Assembly (NCBI GenBank): GCA_030706735.1
Contig: JAUZNZ010000014.1
Span: 54,629 to 118,628, forward strand
DNA from: Bacteroidota bacterium
GTDB taxonomy: Bacteria; Bacteroidota; Bacteroidia; Chitinophagales; Chitinophagaceae
DNA length: 64,000 nt
Direction of reading: 5' to 3'
Shown: piece after piece, positions 24,174 through 40,330 of the stretch
How positions within the stretch are numbered: position 1 is the first letter of the stretch
Layout: every line of letters starts with the position of its first letter
Translations under genes and position numbers: made by a program
Notes under the pieces: model-generated
Told to the model about the DNA's origin: nothing
Seen by the model: only the letters and a program-made list of their open reading frames with translations
Database searches by the model: none

Positions 24174-24947
24174 TTACTGTTTCGTCGCCGCGACACGCAA
24201 TCTTTTGTAGTCCGCCCACCAGGCCTGATACCGGTAATGCGTGGGTCGCAACATATCCTGCACTTCTTCCAGCAATCCGTTCAGGATATCCTCCGGGATA
24301 TTCGAAAAAAAGTCGCTGCAAAACATCCTGATCCAGTCGGTAATGCCCTGTTCACTATCCTGGAGACGGGTCTCGCGGTCATAATGCGATGCATAGCCGA
24401 TGAGAAATCCCCGCTTCTCCAGCAGGCTCGTATATTCACCAAGCGAGGGGAAGTACCAACGCTGCGTCGCCGCGTTCGTATAATAACCATGCCGGGTCAG
24501 GACCTTCCGGATCGCCAGCAGGACCTGATCGTTATTGCCCTTGCCCCCCATTTCCAGGACGAAACGGCCGCCCGGCCGCAGGCTGCGGTAGACACCGTCG
24601 ATCGCCAATTCCTTGTCCAGCACCCAGTGCAGGACGGCATTGGAAAAGACGGCGTCAAAGGCCTGGTTGTAGGGCAGGTCGGTTGCCGAAGCCACCCGGA
24701 AATGCAACCCGGGGTAGGCCGCCCTGGCCTTTTCGATCATCTCGTTCGAACTGTCCACCCCCGTCACGTCGGCGCCGGCCTCGGCGATGAGCTGTGTCAG
24801 ATGGCCGGTACCGCAGCCCAGGTCCAGGATCTCCTCCCCGATGGAGGGAGCGAGCAGCTTGACGAGGTCCTCACCGTATTTGAAGACGAACGCATGCTTG
24901 TCGTCATACAGGTGAGCGTTCCATTTGGTGTCGGTCGTTGCAGGCAT
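24174..24947 (-). CDS. class I SAM-dependent methyltransferase, trans-aconitate methyltransferase-like
   Basis: WNAHLY, ILDLGCGTG, GVDSSNEMI, FDAVFSNAVLHWV, LRPGGRF. Confidence 0.88.
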   Translation of the reverse strand: MPATTDTKWNAHLYDDKHAFVFKYGEDLVKLLAPSIGEEILDLGCGTGHLTQLIAEAGADVTGVDSSNEMIEKARAAYPGLHFRVASATDLPYNQAFDAVFSNAVLHWVLDKELAIDGVYRSLRPGGRFVLEMGGKGNNDQVLLAIRKVLTRHGYYTNAATQRWYFPSLGEYTSLLEKRGFLIGYASHYDRETRLQDSEQGITDWIRMFCSDFFSNIPEDILNGLLEEVQDMLRPTHYRYQAWWADYKRLRVAATKQ

Positions 24948-29428: not shown

Positions 29429-29463
29429 AAAAAAAAGTGACCCGCCTCTGGGAGGCGGGTCAC
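29429..29463 (-). terminator. ilv attenuator terminator
   Basis: Perfect 12-bp stem GTGACCCGCCTC-CCA-GAGGCGGGTCAC followed by U8 on the minus strand, upstream of ilvE. Confidence 0.92.
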
Positions 29464-29489
29464 GGTATTTTGAATTTGAATATTTTACT

Positions 29490-29594
29490 TTACCACCCTC
29501 CTCCCGGAAATGCAGGAATAATAATCACCACCACAATAATGACGGCTATTGCGGAAACCTTAGTGATGATAGTATATAAGCTGCTTTTCGACAT
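29490..29594 (-). CDS. ilv operon leader peptide, MSKSSLYTIITKVSAIAVIIVVVIIIPAFPGGGW (34 aa)
   Basis: Hand-translated ATG..TAA; nine consecutive Ile/Val codons; its 3' end can pair with the terminator 5' arm. Confidence 0.9.
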   Translation of the reverse strand: MSKSSLYTIITKVSAIAVIIVVVIIIPAFPGGGW

Positions 29595-29649: not shown

Positions 29650-30765
29650 TTAAATTATCGTCGACTTCCTCAATTCGATATTCTCCTTCTTGACGCCGCC
29701 CGGTATCTTCCCGCCCACATAATCGGCGATCAGTTCCCCGATCGTCGAAGTGAAATAGAAGTTGATGGGGTCGATATCCTTCGTTACAAAGCCGTTCTGA
29801 AGCGTCCAGTTGGCCGCCTCGCGGATCTTGCCTGCTTCCTTGTTCAGCCCGAAATGGTCCAGCAGCATGGCTGCAGACAGAATGCTGCCGAGCGGGTTCG
29901 CAATATCCTTCCCTGCAGCCTGGGGGTAGGAGCCATGTATCGGTTCGAACAGGGCCGCACCTTTCCCGATGGAGGCGGAAGGCAATAAGCCCAGCGAGCC
30001 GCTGATCACGCTGGCCTCGTCGCTGAGAATATCCCCGAACATGTTTTCGGTCAGCATGACATCGAATTGCCTGGGGTTGAGGATGATCTGCATGGCCGCA
30101 TTATCGACGAACAGGAAATCGACCTTGACGTCGGCATATTGCGGCGCGATCTGCTGAACGGTCTTGCGCCAGAGCCGCGAGGTCTCGAGCACATTGGCCT
30201 TGTCCACCAGCGTAAGCCTCTTTCGCCGCAGCTGGGCTTGTTTAAAGGCAAGGTGGGCGATGCGCTCGATCTCTTCGGTCGTGTACACGCAATCGTCGGA
30301 AGCGCGCTGGCCGTCTTCGCTCAACTCCTTCTTTCCGAAATAAATGCCTCCGGTCAGCTCCCGGAATATGATGAAGTCCACTCCTTCAAGGTTCTTGGCC
30401 TTGAGCGGGGACAGGTGTTGCAGGGCCGGGTAGGTTGCCACCGGCCGTATGTTGGCAAACAATTGTAACGACTTTCTGAGCTTCAGCAGGCCCTGTTCAG
30501 GCCGCACCTTGGCGGACGGGTCGTTGTCGTATTTGGGATGGCCGATGGCCCCGAACAGGATGGCGTCACTGTTAAGGGCGGCCTCGATGGTCTGGTCGGG
30601 AAGAGGATTGCCTGTTTTGTCGATGGCGTCTGCGCCCATCAGACAGTACTTGTAGGTAAAGTGGTGGCCGTTCGGTTCTATCACCGCATTGATCACCTTA
30701 ATGGCCTGCCGCGTGACCTCGGGACCGATGCCGTCTCCTTCAATGACTACGATGTTCTTTTGCAT
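29650..30765 (-). CDS. leuB: 3-isopropylmalate dehydrogenase
   Basis: GDGIGPEV, RPEQGLL, LVDKANVL, NMFGDILSDEAS, EPIHGSYP. Confidence 0.97.
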   Translation of the reverse strand: MQKNIVVIEGDGIGPEVTRQAIKVINAVIEPNGHHFTYKYCLMGADAIDKTGNPLPDQTIEAALNSDAILFGAIGHPKYDNDPSAKVRPEQGLLKLRKSLQLFANIRPVATYPALQHLSPLKAKNLEGVDFIIFRELTGGIYFGKKELSEDGQRASDDCVYTTEEIERIAHLAFKQAQLRRKRLTLVDKANVLETSRLWRKTVQQIAPQYADVKVDFLFVDNAAMQIILNPRQFDVMLTENMFGDILSDEASVISGSLGLLPSASIGKGAALFEPIHGSYPQAAGKDIANPLGSILSAAMLLDHFGLNKEAGKIREAANWTLQNGFVTKDIDPINFYFTSTIGELIADYVGGKIPGGVKKENIELRKSTII

Positions 30766-30766
30766 G

Positions 30767-31354
30767 TTATGCTTGTTGCTGTTCGAATTTTTCTATTTCT
30801 CCCCGGATGCTGAGCAGGTAATCGATGTCGTCATAGCCATTCAGCAGGCAGGTCTTTTTATAATTGTTGATATCGAAGTGCTCCCGTTGGCCGGCGGCGG
30901 AGATCGTTTGCTCTGCCAGGTTCACGTCGATCCGCGTGGAGGGGTCCATTTGGATCGCTTTGAAAAGGCCTTGCAGGAAATCCTCGCTCACCGTTACCGG
31001 CAACAGGAAATTGTTCAGGGCATTGTTCTTAAAGATGTCGGCAAAGAAGCTGCTCACCACCACGTCGAAGCCCGCATCCTTGATGGCCCAGGCGGCATGC
31101 TCCCGGCTGGAACCGCAACCGAAATTCTTGGCGGCTACGAGGATCTTCCCCTTATAGGTCGCGTCATTGAGCACGAAATCCTTTTTCGCTGAGCCGTCGG
31201 CGTTATACCTCCAGTCCCGGAATAGATTCTCTCCAAACCCATCGCGGCTCGTCGCCTTTAGGAAGCGGGCCGGGATGATCTGGTCGGTGTCGACATTCTC
31301 CTGGTTCAGCGGTACCGCGGTCGAAACGATCTTATTTATTGCCTGGTCATTCAT
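30767..31354 (-). CDS. leuD: 3-isopropylmalate dehydratase small subunit
   Basis: [32 protein letters not shown]. Confidence 0.97.
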
Positions 31355-31373
31355 TTTTTTCGCTTGAAGCTCC

Positions 31374-32771
31374 TCACAAATATTCCCTCACGTCGGTAAT
31401 TTCTCCCGTAATGGCCGCTGCCGCAGCCGTAAGGGGGCTGGCCAGCAGAGTGCGGGCATTCGGCCCCTGCCGGCCTTCGAAATTCCGGTTGGAGGTCGAA
31501 ATGCAATATTTCCCCGCGGGGATCTTGTCTTCGTTCATGCCCAGGCACGCCGAGCAGCCGGGTTGCCGCAGCCGGAATCCGGCCGCTTCGAATACCTTGT
31601 CGATGCCCTCCTCGATCGCCTGCTTTTCGACCTGTTTGCTCCCGGGTACGATCCATACTTCCACGTGATCCGCTTTTTTCCGGCCCTTCACGAAGGAGGC
31701 GACCATGCGCAGGTCCTCGATCCGGGAATTGGTGCAGCTGCCGATGAATACATAGTCGACTTTCTTCCCTTTGATGGCCGATCCGGCCTGCAGACCCATA
31801 TAGGCCAATGATTTGATGTAGGACGGTTTCTCCTTTTCGCCGATCTCCGATTCCGCCGGGATATGGCCGCTGATGCCCACTCCCATGCCGGGATTGGTGC
31901 CGTACGTGATCATCGGTTCAATGGCCGCGGCGTCGATCAGGATCTCCTTGTCGAAACGCGCCCCTTCATCGGAATAGAGCGTGGACCATTTGCTGACCGC
32001 TGCGTCCCATGCCGCGCCGGTTGGCGCAAATTGCCGCCCTTTCAGATAGTCGAATGTAGTCTGGTCGGGAGCGATCATGCCGCCGCGCGCGCCCATCTCG
32101 ATGCTCATGTTGCAGATGGTCATGCGGGCCTCCATGGAGAGCCCCCGGATCGCCGAGCCCGCATATTCCACGAAATAACCCGTCGCGCCGCTGGCGGAGA
32201 TGGCGGAAATGATATAAAGGATGATGTCCTTGGATACCACGCCTTTATTGAGGCGGCCTTCGACATTGATGCGCATGAGCCTGGGCTTGCTTTGCAGCAA
32301 ACATTGCGTCGCCATGACCATTTCGACCTCGCTGGTCCCGATGCCGAAAGCAATCGCGCCGAAGGCCCCGTGGGTGGAGGTATGGCTGTCTCCGCAAACG
32401 ATCGTCATGCCCGGCTGCGTTATGCCCAGCTCCGGCCCGATGACATGGACGATGCCCTGGTAAGGGTGGCCCAGGCCGAACAGTTCGATATCGTGCCGTT
32501 GGCAATTTTCGATAAGCTGCTGAACCTGAATGCGGGATAATTCGTCTTTGATCGGCAGGTGCTGATCGACGGTAGGAACGTTGTGATCCGCGGTGGCCAC
32601 GATCTGCCTGGGACGGAAGACGGGGAGCCCGCGTTTCTCCAGACCCTTGAAAGCCTGCGGGCTCGTGACCTCATGGATGAAATGCTTATCGATGTACAGC
32701 ACGGACGGCCCGCCGTCGATGGTGCGGATGATGTGATCGTTCCAGATCTTTTCGAATAGTGTCTTTGCCAA
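31374..32771 (-). CDS. leuC: 3-isopropylmalate dehydratase large subunit
   Basis: [47 protein letters not shown]. Confidence 0.97.
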
Positions 32772-32808
32772 TGGTCTGCTGTTTTTGAATTTCGGTTTCC
32801 CTCGCCTG

Positions 32809-33978
32809 CTATGCGTTTACGGTCGATCCGGAATAGGCCTTGGCCATTTGATGGAGATCTTCCTCCACGACCTCTTTCTTGTTATCGGCTATTTGTAAAA
32901 AGCGTTCGTACAACACGTCTATGTCGTTCCGGCTGTAGGGATAGCCGAGCCGGTGCAGACGGAAGGCCAGCGCGCTGCGCCCGCTCCTCGCGGTGAGCAC
33001 GATCTTGGAACCGTCGGCCCCCACCTCGTCGGGATTGATGATCTCATAGGTCGATGCATCTTTGAGAAAGCCATCCTGGTGGATGCCGGACGAATGCGAA
33101 AAGGCATTTGCGCCCACGATCGCTTTATTGGGCTGCACAGGCACGCGCATGGTATCCGATACGAGCCTGCTCATCGGGTTCAGCTCCTGTGTCCGTATGC
33201 CGGTATAGAACCCGAGGTGCTTGTGCTGGCGGATGACCATGACCACTTCTTCCAGGGAAGTATTCCCGGCCCGTTCGCCGAGCCCGTTGATGGTGCATTC
33301 GATCTGCCGGGCCCCATTCATGATGCCGGCGATGGAGTTAGCCGTCGCCAGACCCAGGTCGTTATGGCAATGACAGGAAATGACCGCCTTATCAATATTC
33401 TTTACATTGTTCATGAGGTAGGCGATCTTGTCGCCGTATTGATTCGGGAGACAATAACCGGTCGTATCCGGGATATTGACAACCGTGGCGCCGGCGGCGA
33501 TGACCCCTTCGATGACCCGCGCGAGGTAATCATTGTCGGTGCGGCCGGCATCCTCCGCGTAGAATTCGACATCGTCGACATAACTCTTGGCCCATTTCAC
33601 GGCCTGTATGGCGCGTTGGAGGATCTCCTCCCGGGTAGCGTTGAACTTACTTTTGATATGAAAATCCGACGTGCCGATGCCGGTATGGATGCGAGGGTGT
33701 TTTGCGTGCTTGAGGGCCCTTGCGGCCGTTTCAATGTCTTTTTCCACTGCGCGGCTCAAACCGCACACGGTGGCATTCCGGAGAATGCGCGAGATTTCGT
33801 CGACCGATTGGAAATCGCCCGGGCTGGATATAGGAAAGCCTGCTTCCAGGACGTCCACCCCGAGCGCCTCGAGTTGCAGAGCGATTTCGATCTTTTCCCT
33901 GCTATTGAGCTTACAACCGGGGACCTGTTCGCCATCCCGGAGCGTCGTGTCGAAAATGAAGATTTTTTTTTCAGGCAT
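32809..33978 (-). CDS. leuA: 2-isopropylmalate synthase, short form without the C-terminal regulatory domain
   Basis: [32 protein letters not shown]; about 389 aa from MPEKK; ends just after the accessory domain. Confidence 0.93.
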
Positions 33979-34150
33979 AGTGATAGGCGTAGTAATTTTG
34001 AAAAACAAGGATACCTTTAGGCCATACGTTCGAAATTACCCTTGTTCCAGTTCGTTATGAAATCATTATGAGGATGGTTTTACGCTGCGTAAGGGGGGCT
34101 AATTCGCCCGAAATCCTTTCCTGTCGCCACTTTTAAACCTAAAAATTACG

Positions 34151-35701
34151 ATGCCCAACCGATCGTCAGACGCCTTGTTCCAGTTGGTTAAATCCCTCGA
34201 AAAGTCGGAAAAACGCAACTTCAAGCTTTACGTCAAGCGGAACTCAACCAGTGAGGACCTGAAGATCATACAGTTATTCGATGCCCTGGATAAGATGGAG
34301 GGATACGACGAGGAGCAGTTGTTGAAACGGAACAAGTCGATAAAAAAGCAGCAGTTGTCGAACGCCAAAGCGCACCTTTATCGCCAGATCCTGTCCAGCC
34401 TGCGGCTGATCCATAATGAGGAAAATATTGATATTCAACTGCATGAGCAGCTGGACCATGCCCGCATCCTGTATAACAAAGGACTGTACCTGCAAAGCCT
34501 TAAGGTACTCGACCGGATAAAGGAGAACGCGAAGGCCAATAACCAGGTCACCTTTCTGCTGCAGGTGCTTTTCTTTGAAAAAAAGATCGAGGCGCTGCAC
34601 ATCACGCGAAGCATGCAGGATCGGGCGGACCGCCTGGCTGCCGAAGTCGACCAGGTGAATGAGGAACTCGGGTTGATGAGCAAACTCTCCAACCTGGCGC
34701 TGCAGCTATACAGCTGGTATATCCGTAACGGCCTGGCGCGTAATGAAAAGGATGAGATGGCGGTTCAGGAATTTTTCGAGACCCATATTCCTCCGGACCT
34801 GAGTCGCTGCGAAGGATTTTATGAGCGACTGTACCAGTATCAGAGCTTTTGCTGGTATGCGTTCATCCGCCAGGACTACCTCATGTACTACCGGTATACG
34901 CAGAAATGGGTCGATCTTTTCGACAAAGAACCCTTCATGATCGGCGTGGAAACGGCGCACTATATCAAGGGACTGCATAACCTGCTCAGTGCGCATTTCG
35001 ACCTGCAGAACTTTCAGAAGTTCGTGGAGATGCTGAATAAATTCGAGGAATTTTCCCACTCGGCGATCGTGATGCATAACCACAATAACCTGATCCAGAC
35101 CTTCATCTACTTGCATATCTCGAAACTGAACCGGCATTTCCTGGATGGCACGTTCACGGAGGGTTTGGCGCTGGTGCCGTATATCGAGGACAAACTGAAA
35201 GAGTTCGAGATCTACCTCGATCGTCACCGGATACTGGTCTTCTACTACAAGATCGCCTGTCTCTATTTTGGCAGCGGGGACTATGGCCGGACGATCGACT
35301 ATCTGAATAAGATCATCAACTGGCGGGTCGACCTGCGAACGGATCTCCAGTGTTATTCCCGGCTGCTGCACCTGATCGCCCACTATGAACTGGGTAATTT
35401 CCAGCTGCTCGAGTACCTCACAAAATCGGTCTATCGCTTCATGGCAAAAATGGGTAATCTCAGCCTGGTGGAGGAGGAGATATTCGCCTTCATACGCAAG
35501 TCTTTTTCCCTTTCGGCGGCCCAGATCCGGCCGGAATTCGAAAAGTTACTGGAAAAGTTGAGGACCTATGAGAAGAACCGCTTCGAGACCAGGGCCTTTG
35601 CCTACCTGGATATCATCTCCTGGCTGGAAAGCAAGATCCGGAACATCCCGGTGCAGGACGTGATCCGGGAGAAATACCTGACCGGGAACCGTCGCGCCTG
35701 A
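34151..35701 (+). CDS. uncharacterised 516-aa all-helical protein (basic N-terminal domain plus TPR-like repeats); candidate regulator
   Basis: Long ORF with genome-typical codon use; no signal peptide or TM segment; TPR-like segments such as YYKIACLYFGSGDYGRTIDYLNKII; divergent from leuA. Confidence 0.85.
   Translation: MPNRSSDALFQLVKSLEKSEKRNFKLYVKRNSTSEDLKIIQLFDALDKMEGYDEEQLLKRNKSIKKQQLSNAKAHLYRQILSSLRLIHNEENIDIQLHEQLDHARILYNKGLYLQSLKVLDRIKENAKANNQVTFLLQVLFFEKKIEALHITRSMQDRADRLAAEVDQVNEELGLMSKLSNLALQLYSWYIRNGLARNEKDEMAVQEFFETHIPPDLSRCEGFYERLYQYQSFCWYAFIRQDYLMYYRYTQKWVDLFDKEPFMIGVETAHYIKGLHNLLSAHFDLQNFQKFVEMLNKFEEFSHSAIVMHNHNNLIQTFIYLHISKLNRHFLDGTFTEGLALVPYIEDKLKEFEIYLDRHRILVFYYKIACLYFGSGDYGRTIDYLNKIINWRVDLRTDLQCYSRLLHLIAHYELGNFQLLEYLTKSVYRFMAKMGNLSLVEEEIFAFIRKSFSLSAAQIRPEFEKLLEKLRTYEKNRFETRAFAYLDIISWLESKIRNIPVQDVIREKYLTGNRRA

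Positions 35702-36034: not shown

Positions 36035-40330
<4,296 letters not shown>

Follow-up and report, generated by a model that had tools for sequence, protein, structure and literature searches.

Within a 64,000-nucleotide stretch of a Bacteroidota genome (family Chitinophagaceae; assembly GCA_030706735.1, contig JAUZNZ010000014.1, positions 54,629 to 118,628; hereafter, the window), a gene at 34151-35701 encodes a 516-residue protein, P0001, that is homologous to the regulator RusR over its entire length and lies head-to-head with the leucine biosynthetic operon leuACDB. On balance, we favour the view that P0001 is a local regulator dedicated to this operon. Its family membership, its genomic linkage to leu genes, its loss together with leuA, the architecture of the intervening DNA and the absence of a leu attenuator are directly observed, and the evidence for a functional tie of P0001 to the operon is strong. 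The gene is a real open reading frame (ORF) with an ATG start. The ORF listed for leuA begins with TTG at 34008, but ATG at 33978 matches the starts of its homologs and is more likely to be the initiation codon, which would set the spacer between the two genes at 172 bp. The principal features are as follows:

34151-35701, forward strand: RusR-family protein P0001, candidate leu-operon regulator, 516 aa (ORF, NCBIfam match, AlphaFold2 model)
33979-34150, no strand: 172-bp control region separating the divergent leuA (ATG 33978) and regulator genes (sequence, homolog spacers)
29650-33978, reverse strand: leuA-leuC-leuD-leuB, proposed target transcription unit, with a short-form LeuA lacking PF08502 (Pfam, NCBIfam, genome-wide PF08502 scan)

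Genomic linkage to the leucine operon

Orthologs sharing 35-100% identity with P0001, drawn from at least nine sampled families, are divergent from whichever gene stands first in the leu operon. The leuA-divergent arrangement is present in all of the loci examined from the same genus, and is retained in other Chitinophagales and in a Flavicella metagenome-assembled genome (46% identity). An even draw of 401 high-quality genomes from across the phylum yielded 94 with a match to P0001 at E <= 1e-60; among its best 29 loci, the divergent partner is leuA in 24, leuC in one and ilvE in one. The operon begins with leuC at loci L168 and L078, and with ilvE at L080; given that the regulator gene is also divergent from an operon ordered leuC-leuD-leuB-leuA, it tracks the operon head and not leuA itself. 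In the large family f44, the regulator gene lies between leuA and ilvD, and is co-directional with the downstream ilvD. Of 20 loci in additional families, with 32-46% identity, 15 have the regulator gene in divergent orientation at the head of a leu cluster, and the same pattern recurs among 80 metagenomic loci that were picked by sequence alone.

In a non-redundant set of 130 homologs, divergence from a leu or ilv gene is seen for 69 of the 70 at 66-100% identity (the flank of the remaining one being too short), for all 10 at 47-55%, for 17 of the 23 at 31-46%, and for none of the seven at 20-30%. Phylogenetically, the leu-linked state spans the whole ingroup, and the unlinked members are of three kinds: 'paralog B', a second small clade of extra copies, and a few single genes. 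Paralog B is a well-supported, Chitinophagaceae-specific duplicate, nested among the leu-linked clades and without conserved neighbours; its representative in the genome under study (G000:C79:34934-36478, reverse strand; locus L028) is 61% identical to P0001. Moreover, the complete genomes without the regulator gene in families f1, f18 and f19 are also without leuA in seven of seven cases. The preliminary description of this locus, made from the sequence alone, had proposed a regulator of branched-chain amino acid (BCAA) genes and mentioned similar proteins beside catabolic genes of these pathways: divergence from the head of the leu operon is indeed conserved across the phylum, whereas bkd and ivd genes were not seen, and the link is specifically to leucine biosynthesis.

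A repeated box in the control region

The spacer contains several short elements that recur in homologous spacers:

34080-34092, forward strand: box 1, TTACGCTGCGTAA, palindrome TTACGC-T-GCGTAA, motif TTAC-RATG-nYYAA (k-mer enrichment, spacer alignments)
34146-34158, forward strand: box 2, TTACGATGCCCAA, overlapping the regulator ATG at 34151 and fixing the codons Met-Pro-Asn; putative autoregulatory site (k-mer enrichment, motif comparison)
34031-34038, reverse strand: -7-like promoter element of the leuA strand, TAATTTCG, with one mismatch to TAnnTTTG (spacer comparison anchored on box 1)
33993-34000, forward strand: exact TAnnTTTG, TAATTTTG, possible promoter of the regulator gene, the position of which varies between lineages (sequence)

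The palindromes across which the two genes were said to face one another are present, comprising GTAATTTTGAA/TTCGAAATTAC at 33992-34002/34029-34039 and that of box 1. Spacers are typically ~175 bp long, and several blocks are conserved across 98 from Chitinophagaceae. The layout common to the lineages consists of the leuA-strand -7 box, ~42 nt, box 1, and a second copy of the box 66 nt further on, at the start codon of the regulator gene. In an unbiased k-mer search of 24 lineage representatives, TAC[GA]ATG was found in 20 (z ~12) and TTACGA in 11 (z ~7), and boxes 1 and 2 both fit the single 13-mer TTAC-RATG-nYYAA. Box 2 fixes Met-Pro/Ala-Asn at an N-terminus that is modelled as disordered, and the TAC[GA]ATG start context occurs at only 0.42% of the genes in this genome. 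Box 1 starts 71 nt before the regulator ATG and lies 49 nt from the leuA-strand -7 box; in lineages at 35-100% identity, it starts 71-73 nt upstream of the ATG, and in f44 84-95 nt upstream.

The boxes follow the leu linkage. Among non-redundant upstream regions of leu-linked genes (n=126), the start-codon box is present in 114, and TTAC 68-76 nt upstream in 97; for unlinked relatives (n=32), the corresponding figures are six and six. In the copy of paralog B from this genome, both TTAC boxes are lost, and the upstream block GAAACCCTT..CTGG is kept. On the opposite strand, an element of the form TAnnTT[T/C]G is found 48-49 nt away from box 1 in 80 of the 100 spacers compared, among them those of seven of the nine lineages below 55% identity, and this spacing places the centre of box 1 at about -60 relative to the inferred leuA transcription start. 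In genome G110, the regulator gene is on another contig, yet the leuA promoter retains both elements, box 1 being 49-50 nt from the -7 box. Conversely, the box module is absent from six genomes that have leuA and lack the regulator gene, of which only G027 and G189 are clean controls. Within the genome under study, the spacer is the only intergenic spot with two same-strand sites within 120 nt. Inference of a regulon with a position weight matrix was abandoned: the motif is too low in information, giving 127 sites above 13 bits, and the only other pair (on contig C54) is inside an ORF.

P0001 belongs to the RusR family

Residues 6-504 of P0001 match positions 4-501 of the 502 in the NCBIfam model NF058569 (BT2802 family ribose utilization protein) with an E-value of 3.4e-41. 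The score of 141.8 bits is far under the 550-bit cut-off of the model, and P0001 is a distant superfamily member, not a ribose regulator; only the Bacteroides thetaiotaomicron control passes, and a search of the genome under study scored both copies at 141 bits. No ribokinase or SusC/D ribose-utilisation genes lie beside the P0001 gene, the neighbours of which are leuA-leuC-leuD-leuB and rpoC. BT2802 is RusR of B. thetaiotaomicron, the only relative to have been studied; when it is deleted, the bacterium no longer grows on ribose and rus induction falls to ~10%, and the authors of that work regard it as a candidate regulator unlike the known regulators of polysaccharide utilization loci (PULs) (bioRxiv 10.1101/574913). 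Neither in that study nor in PMC12596196 is a DNA site, a ligand or a structure reported for RusR (a further RusR paper being PMC8121099), and our literature searches for earlier work on the leu-linked orthogroup found the RusR papers only.

The two proteins are homologous over the whole ~500 residues, sharing the same N-terminal motifs and helical body, and each is encoded beside an operon linked to it, RusR being needed for the induction of its own. They differ in that they are only ~25% identical, in that RusR serves a ribose-utilisation PUL whereas P0001 accompanies an amino-acid biosynthetic operon, and in orientation, rusR being upstream of and co-directional with its operon and the P0001 gene divergent. 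P0001 is a new and functionally distinct branch of a known, large and barely characterized family of cytoplasmic helical proteins of ~510 residues, and the original label of 'undescribed' does not hold at the family level.

An exhaustive search, clustered at 50% identity, gave 7,024 family representatives at E <= 1e-3 and 1,333 at E <= 1e-30. Nearly all of them are 500-530 residues long and matched end to end, and the family hence has one fixed architecture. The most conserved part throughout is the N-terminal ~90 residues (LFxLxKSLxKSEKRxFK ... FDxxDKMEGYDE), which do not vary even where overall identity drops to 28%. As many as 37 copies occur per genome, this maximum being in G040 (loci L188-L205, L037 and L038), which is from the same order; of 18 paralogs sampled there, 13 are head-to-head with a neighbour, across spacers of 65-305 bp, and seven of the 10 such neighbours tested are proteins secreted by the type IX secretion system (T9SS), with CHU_C or Por_Secre_tail sorting domains and often PKD domains. 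This suggests that regulator-cargo pairs have expanded in G040. Divergent placement is also seen for the distant family members L036, L037, L038 and L056. The partners of distant members vary, and include T9SS cargo, a carboxyltransferase/MatE/thioesterase cluster, and an M1 peptidase with a transporter; such varied head-to-head partners fit a family of local regulators.

Architecture of P0001

A confident model of P0001 obtained with AlphaFold2 from a 71-sequence alignment is all-alpha, with 28 helices (pLDDT 88.2, pTM 0.83), and is divided here into two parts:

34151-34426, forward strand: basic five-helix N-terminal module, residues 1-92, with the motifs LFxLxKSLxKSEKRxFK and FDxxDKMEGYDE (alignments, model, charge)
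34427-35698, forward strand: tetratricopeptide repeat (TPR)-like alpha-solenoid, residues 93-516, putative sensor or interaction domain (Pfam, AlphaFold2, Foldseek)

Pfam gives a sub-threshold TPR_8 match only, and a Foldseek search of the PDB with the whole model returns TPR solenoids; taken together, these justify the 'TPR-like' label. The best bacterial template modelling (TM) scores are those of the Rap protein 8rsv_A (TMq 0.43, TMt 0.57), NprR (5dbk_B; 0.39 and 0.54) and a second Rap protein, 6t46_C (0.51), together with domain III of MalT, at weak E-values of ~3e-3 to 8e-3, those of 8rsv_A and 5dbk_B being 3.6e-3 to 8.4e-3, and generic eukaryotic TPR proteins surpass Rap and NprR by E-value. 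The reading of the body as a TPR-like sensor is reasonable, although the evidence for it is weak. The solenoid also contains an invariant motif, RxDLxCYxRLLxLxxHYELGN, at residues 396-416.

The N-terminal module (residues 1-92) has a pI of 9.56 and a net charge of +4.7, with ten conserved Lys/Arg residues (the family median pI being 9.8), and folds into five helices when modelled alone (pLDDT 81). The protein thus has the length, the basic module and the TPR-like body that the preliminary description gave it. Additionally, as stated there for LysR, Lrp, AraC, TetR and CodY, Pfam and NCBIfam scans of the whole of P0001 and of its N-domain found no DNA-binding domain of the LysR, Lrp, AraC, TetR, CodY or IclR type. 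With conserved basic residues but no relative of known fold, a DNA-binding role for the module is plausible, albeit without support from known folds.

The proposed equation with the RRNPP layout of the Firmicutes (NprR, PlcR, PrgX and Rap), namely, a DNA-binding domain followed by a TPR sensor, is not borne out. Like these proteins, P0001 has a small helical module at its N-terminus, followed by a TPR-like solenoid that may be a sensor, and they are among the best TM-scores; however, the structural similarity is weak (TM 0.5-0.57), there is no XRE-type helix-turn-helix (HTH) and no sequence similarity to RRNPP proteins, and the phylum is different. No conserved small ORF that might encode a cognate secreted peptide was noticed beside the gene, although no systematic analysis was made.

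Proposed mechanism

The explanation that we favour, with moderate confidence, is that P0001 is a leucine-operon-specific local regulator of the RusR family, which binds TTAC-RATG-nYYAA, activates leuACDB from box 1, regulates itself negatively at box 2, and senses a pathway metabolite through its solenoid. Local transcriptional regulation of leuACDB, with P0001 probably an activator subject to autoregulation, is the most economical mechanism. P0001 would recognize the 13-nt box TTAC-RATG-nYYAA; from box 1, which immediately precedes the -33 region of the leuA promoter and is centred at about -60, it would activate leuA-leuC-leuD-leuB, the -7 element of which is slightly off consensus. Occupation of box 2, over its own start codon, would bring about negative autoregulation, as in divergent LysR-type regulators such as IlvY, and the TPR-like solenoid may sense leucine, 2-ketoisocaproate or an isopropylmalate, and so set the activity of the protein. 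DNA binding by P0001, the sign of the regulation and the ligand are the parts of this model that we infer.

In Escherichia coli, IlvY is encoded head-to-head with ilvC, a BCAA gene; its operators are in the shared spacer, it activates its target and represses itself, and a pathway intermediate is the signal. This pair provides a working analogy for P0001, every step of which is an extrapolation, and P0001 has neither the LysR HTH nor the substrate-binding domain. A bolder possibility, which we advance only tentatively, is that the N-terminal module is a previously unseen DNA-binding fold, that the RusR-like family is a major unrecognized class of one-component transcription factors in the Bacteroidota, and that the leu orthogroup is the dedicated activator of leucine biosynthesis in the phylum, with TTAC-RATG-nYYAA as its operator and a metabolite-sensing TPR domain.

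A number of observations weigh against the favoured model. The factor that binds the boxes could be one other than P0001. The Foldseek search for an HTH-like N-domain, which the preliminary description had suggested as a check, gave no such domain among the PDB matches of the module, the best E-value being 0.83; similarly, no HTH family is found in Pfam at E-values up to 10 for 39 N-domains, and there is no sequence match in the PDB. A likeness of residues 8-28 and 66-85 to sigma-70 region 4 or LuxR, seen by eye, was rejected: an hhalign comparison with 14 Sigma70_r4_2 segments from the same genome aligned residues 8-28 only, at a probability of 1% and an E-value of 0.054. Moreover, the best whole-chain TM-scores include those of Rap proteins, which regulate through protein contacts and not through DNA. 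With regard to the genomic evidence, related genomes are not independent, such that the raw counts overstate the support; transcription starts were placed from consensus elements only; and four of the six control promoters carry no information, since leuA in those genomes is probably not the first gene of its operon. Additionally, genome G400 retains a homolog without a close leuA (E <= 1e-60); this homolog (L187; G400:C11:660549-662081) is 38% identical to P0001 and has an intact start-codon box (TTACGATGTCTAA).

Competing explanations

Several of these points would be accommodated if P0001 were an indirect, Rap-like regulator, in which the N-terminal bundle and the TPR groove modulate a DNA-binding factor, a sigma factor or RNA polymerase, with the partner binding the TTAC boxes. 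The lack of a DNA-binding fold relative for the N-module and the TMt values for Rap and NprR are in keeping with this mechanism, and the RusR genetics are compatible with either direct or indirect action. However, the Foldseek matches are of a generic TPR-solenoid kind and weak; the N-module carries conserved Lys/Arg and is strongly basic; and DNA binders that regulate themselves typically have a box over the start codon of their own gene. Furthermore, no partner gene is conserved beside the regulator gene, the neighbours of which vary apart from leu and ilv genes, and we regard this alternative as unlikely.

P0001 might instead be a co-regulated partner without a regulatory role, acting as a scaffold, chaperone or allosteric partner of the leucine enzymes, for example by providing feedback for a short-form LeuA or by aiding LeuCD or IlvD, with an unrelated transcription factor driving both promoters via the shared boxes. 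A co-regulated member of the pathway would also show the linkage, the co-loss and the shared boxes, TPR proteins are commonly scaffolds, and in f44 the gene is co-directional with the downstream ilvD. The genome is, moreover, without a LeuA regulatory domain: no match to PF08502 (LeuA_dimer) was found anywhere in the 99.98%-complete genome (G000), so the sole LeuA is a short form without the leucine-feedback domain (389-399 aa, with HMGL-like and HCS_D2 as its only Pfam domains). In the same draw of 401 genomes, the family tallies were:

f37: regulator gene in 0/86, PF08502 in 86/86
f1: regulator gene in 17/21, PF08502 in 6/21
f21: regulator gene in 3/3, PF08502 in 0/3
f44: regulator gene in 38/61, PF08502 in 58/61
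f19: regulator gene in 23/28, PF08502 in 17/28

The anticorrelation between the regulator gene and PF08502 is a tendency and not a rule. In G106 and G046, the regulator gene heads operons that include a full-length, PF08502-bearing LeuA, an arrangement that also speaks against a scaffold serving the short form. The idea that the regulator replaces the LeuA feedback domain was, therefore, rejected: the domain is indeed missing from this genome, as had been proposed, but the suggestion that P0001 fills the gap survives only as a trend at the family level. Further evidence against a non-regulatory partner is that the gene is divergent, at the head of the operon and not inside it; that loss of RusR lowers transcription; and that members of the family lie beside T9SS cargo genes, the carboxyltransferase cluster, the M1 peptidase gene and the rus PUL, as would be anticipated for a family of regulators but not for a partner of leucine enzymes. 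On this evidence, such a role is decidedly improbable.

The control of the leu operon at the RNA level was considered in two forms. The first, a structured leader or riboswitch in the spacer, was rejected, as RNAalifold analysis of 92 spacers found no consensus RNA structure on either strand, and 33979-34150 has no Rfam match; the conserved blocks are consequently DNA elements. Nor does this region contain a Leu-rich leader ORF or a terminator, and the leu attenuator is indeed missing, as had been claimed. An element resembling a classical attenuator is instead situated before ilvE:

29437-29594, reverse strand: Ile/Val-rich 34-aa leader ORF (29490-29594, containing AIAVIIVVVIIIP) and 12-bp GC-rich hairpin with T8 (29437-29463) (sequence)

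This leader ORF, hairpin and T8 tract look like the attenuator of the ilv unit, and also end the leu unit; from their position between leuB and ilvE, leuACDB is a separate unit headed at the spacer, with the ilv genes under their own Ile/Val attenuator. Leader-peptide attenuation would thus perform in this genome, for the ilv unit, the same regulatory job as that proposed for P0001, whereas the leuA spacer has none of its hallmarks. A transcription factor dedicated to leucine biosynthesis, in a phylum that has no leader-peptide attenuator for leu, has a parallel in the IclR-type regulators NdgR/LtbR, which control leuCD in Actinobacteria (PMC4340878); these are of another fold and family, and no homology to P0001 was detected.

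In the second form, P0001 itself would bind two TTACRAUG sites in its own long 5' untranslated region and/or the leuA leader, and thereby govern translation or the stability of the mRNA. The start codon lies within box 2, and in L177-L179 box 1 mimics a start region, reading TTACGATG; many lineages have an exact plus-strand TAnnTTTG before box 1, from which the regulator transcript would include both boxes, and IFIT-type TPR RNA binders are among the weak Foldseek matches. The latter, however, are generic TPR matches, and the spacers show no conserved RNA structure. Moreover, the distance between box 1 and the leuA-strand -7 box is fixed, and in G110 the leuA promoter still carries box 1, which would there be upstream of the transcription start and, hence, outside the leuA mRNA. 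We consider an RNA-level mechanism very unlikely. In L177-L179, box 1 (TTACGATG, ~70 nt upstream of the ATG) also opens short ORFs (e.g. MFNVVIVVLIT), which is probably incidental; an upstream ORF or leader peptide at box 1 was rejected, being on the regulator's strand, not conserved elsewhere and absent from the window.

Finally, the absence of any functional link, with the adjacency being inherited synteny and the boxes ordinary promoter features, is highly improbable: many of the loci are close relatives, and the counts inflated by shared ancestry, but the arrangement persists to 35% identity over rearranged operons while other neighbours turn over, the gene is lost with leuA in every case noted above, the start-codon box is rare in the genome, and the unlinked paralog B no longer has the boxes.

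Neighbouring genes

Upstream of the regulator gene, on the opposite strand, leuA, leuC, leuD and leuB are followed by ilvE, ilvD, ilvB, a gene for a Tam-like methyltransferase, ilvN, ilvC and ilvA. The methyltransferase gene (24174-24947, reverse strand), which lies between ilvB and ilvN, is trans-aconitate-methyltransferase-like (NCBIfam NF002463; E 6e-23, below the cut-off); yeast Tmt1, a relative, methylates 3-isopropylmalate. Downstream, the regulator gene is followed on its own strand by rpoC, skp and a gene for an amino-acid permease. On the contig that carries rpoC (36035-40330), rpoB (G000:C7:42971-46747, beyond the window) lies ~44 kb upstream of the rpoC start, and the ilv-leu cluster and the regulator gene are situated between the two. 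A functional link between the regulator and rpoC was considered and dropped, since their adjacency is confined to the Puia-like lineage. On the metagenome contig Ga0193726_1000051, the leu-linked locus L154 has no rpoC nearby, and a paralog-B-like locus, L158, is ~5.5 kb upstream of rpoC.

Implications

In the literature searched, we found no description of how BCAA synthesis is controlled in the Bacteroidota, and neither LysR, Lrp or CodY regulators nor a leu attenuator were detected at the leu locus. The specific link to leucine biosynthesis, on which linkage, co-loss, the shared boxes and the RusR precedent converge, ties P0001 to the control of leucine synthesis, and provides an operator motif and a promoter geometry that are testable; what has fallen away from the original proposal of a BCAA regulator are the HTH and a strict connection with the feedback domain. 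The RusR family, hitherto represented by one ribose regulator defined through genetics, thereby becomes a family found across the phylum and associated with biosynthetic operons, PULs and T9SS cargo genes. Its putative N-terminal DNA- or partner-binding module is without structural precedent in the PDB. Were DNA binding by this module to prove true, it would define a new transcription-factor fold, and hundreds of 'hypothetical TPR proteins' in the Bacteroidota would become interpretable as local regulators.

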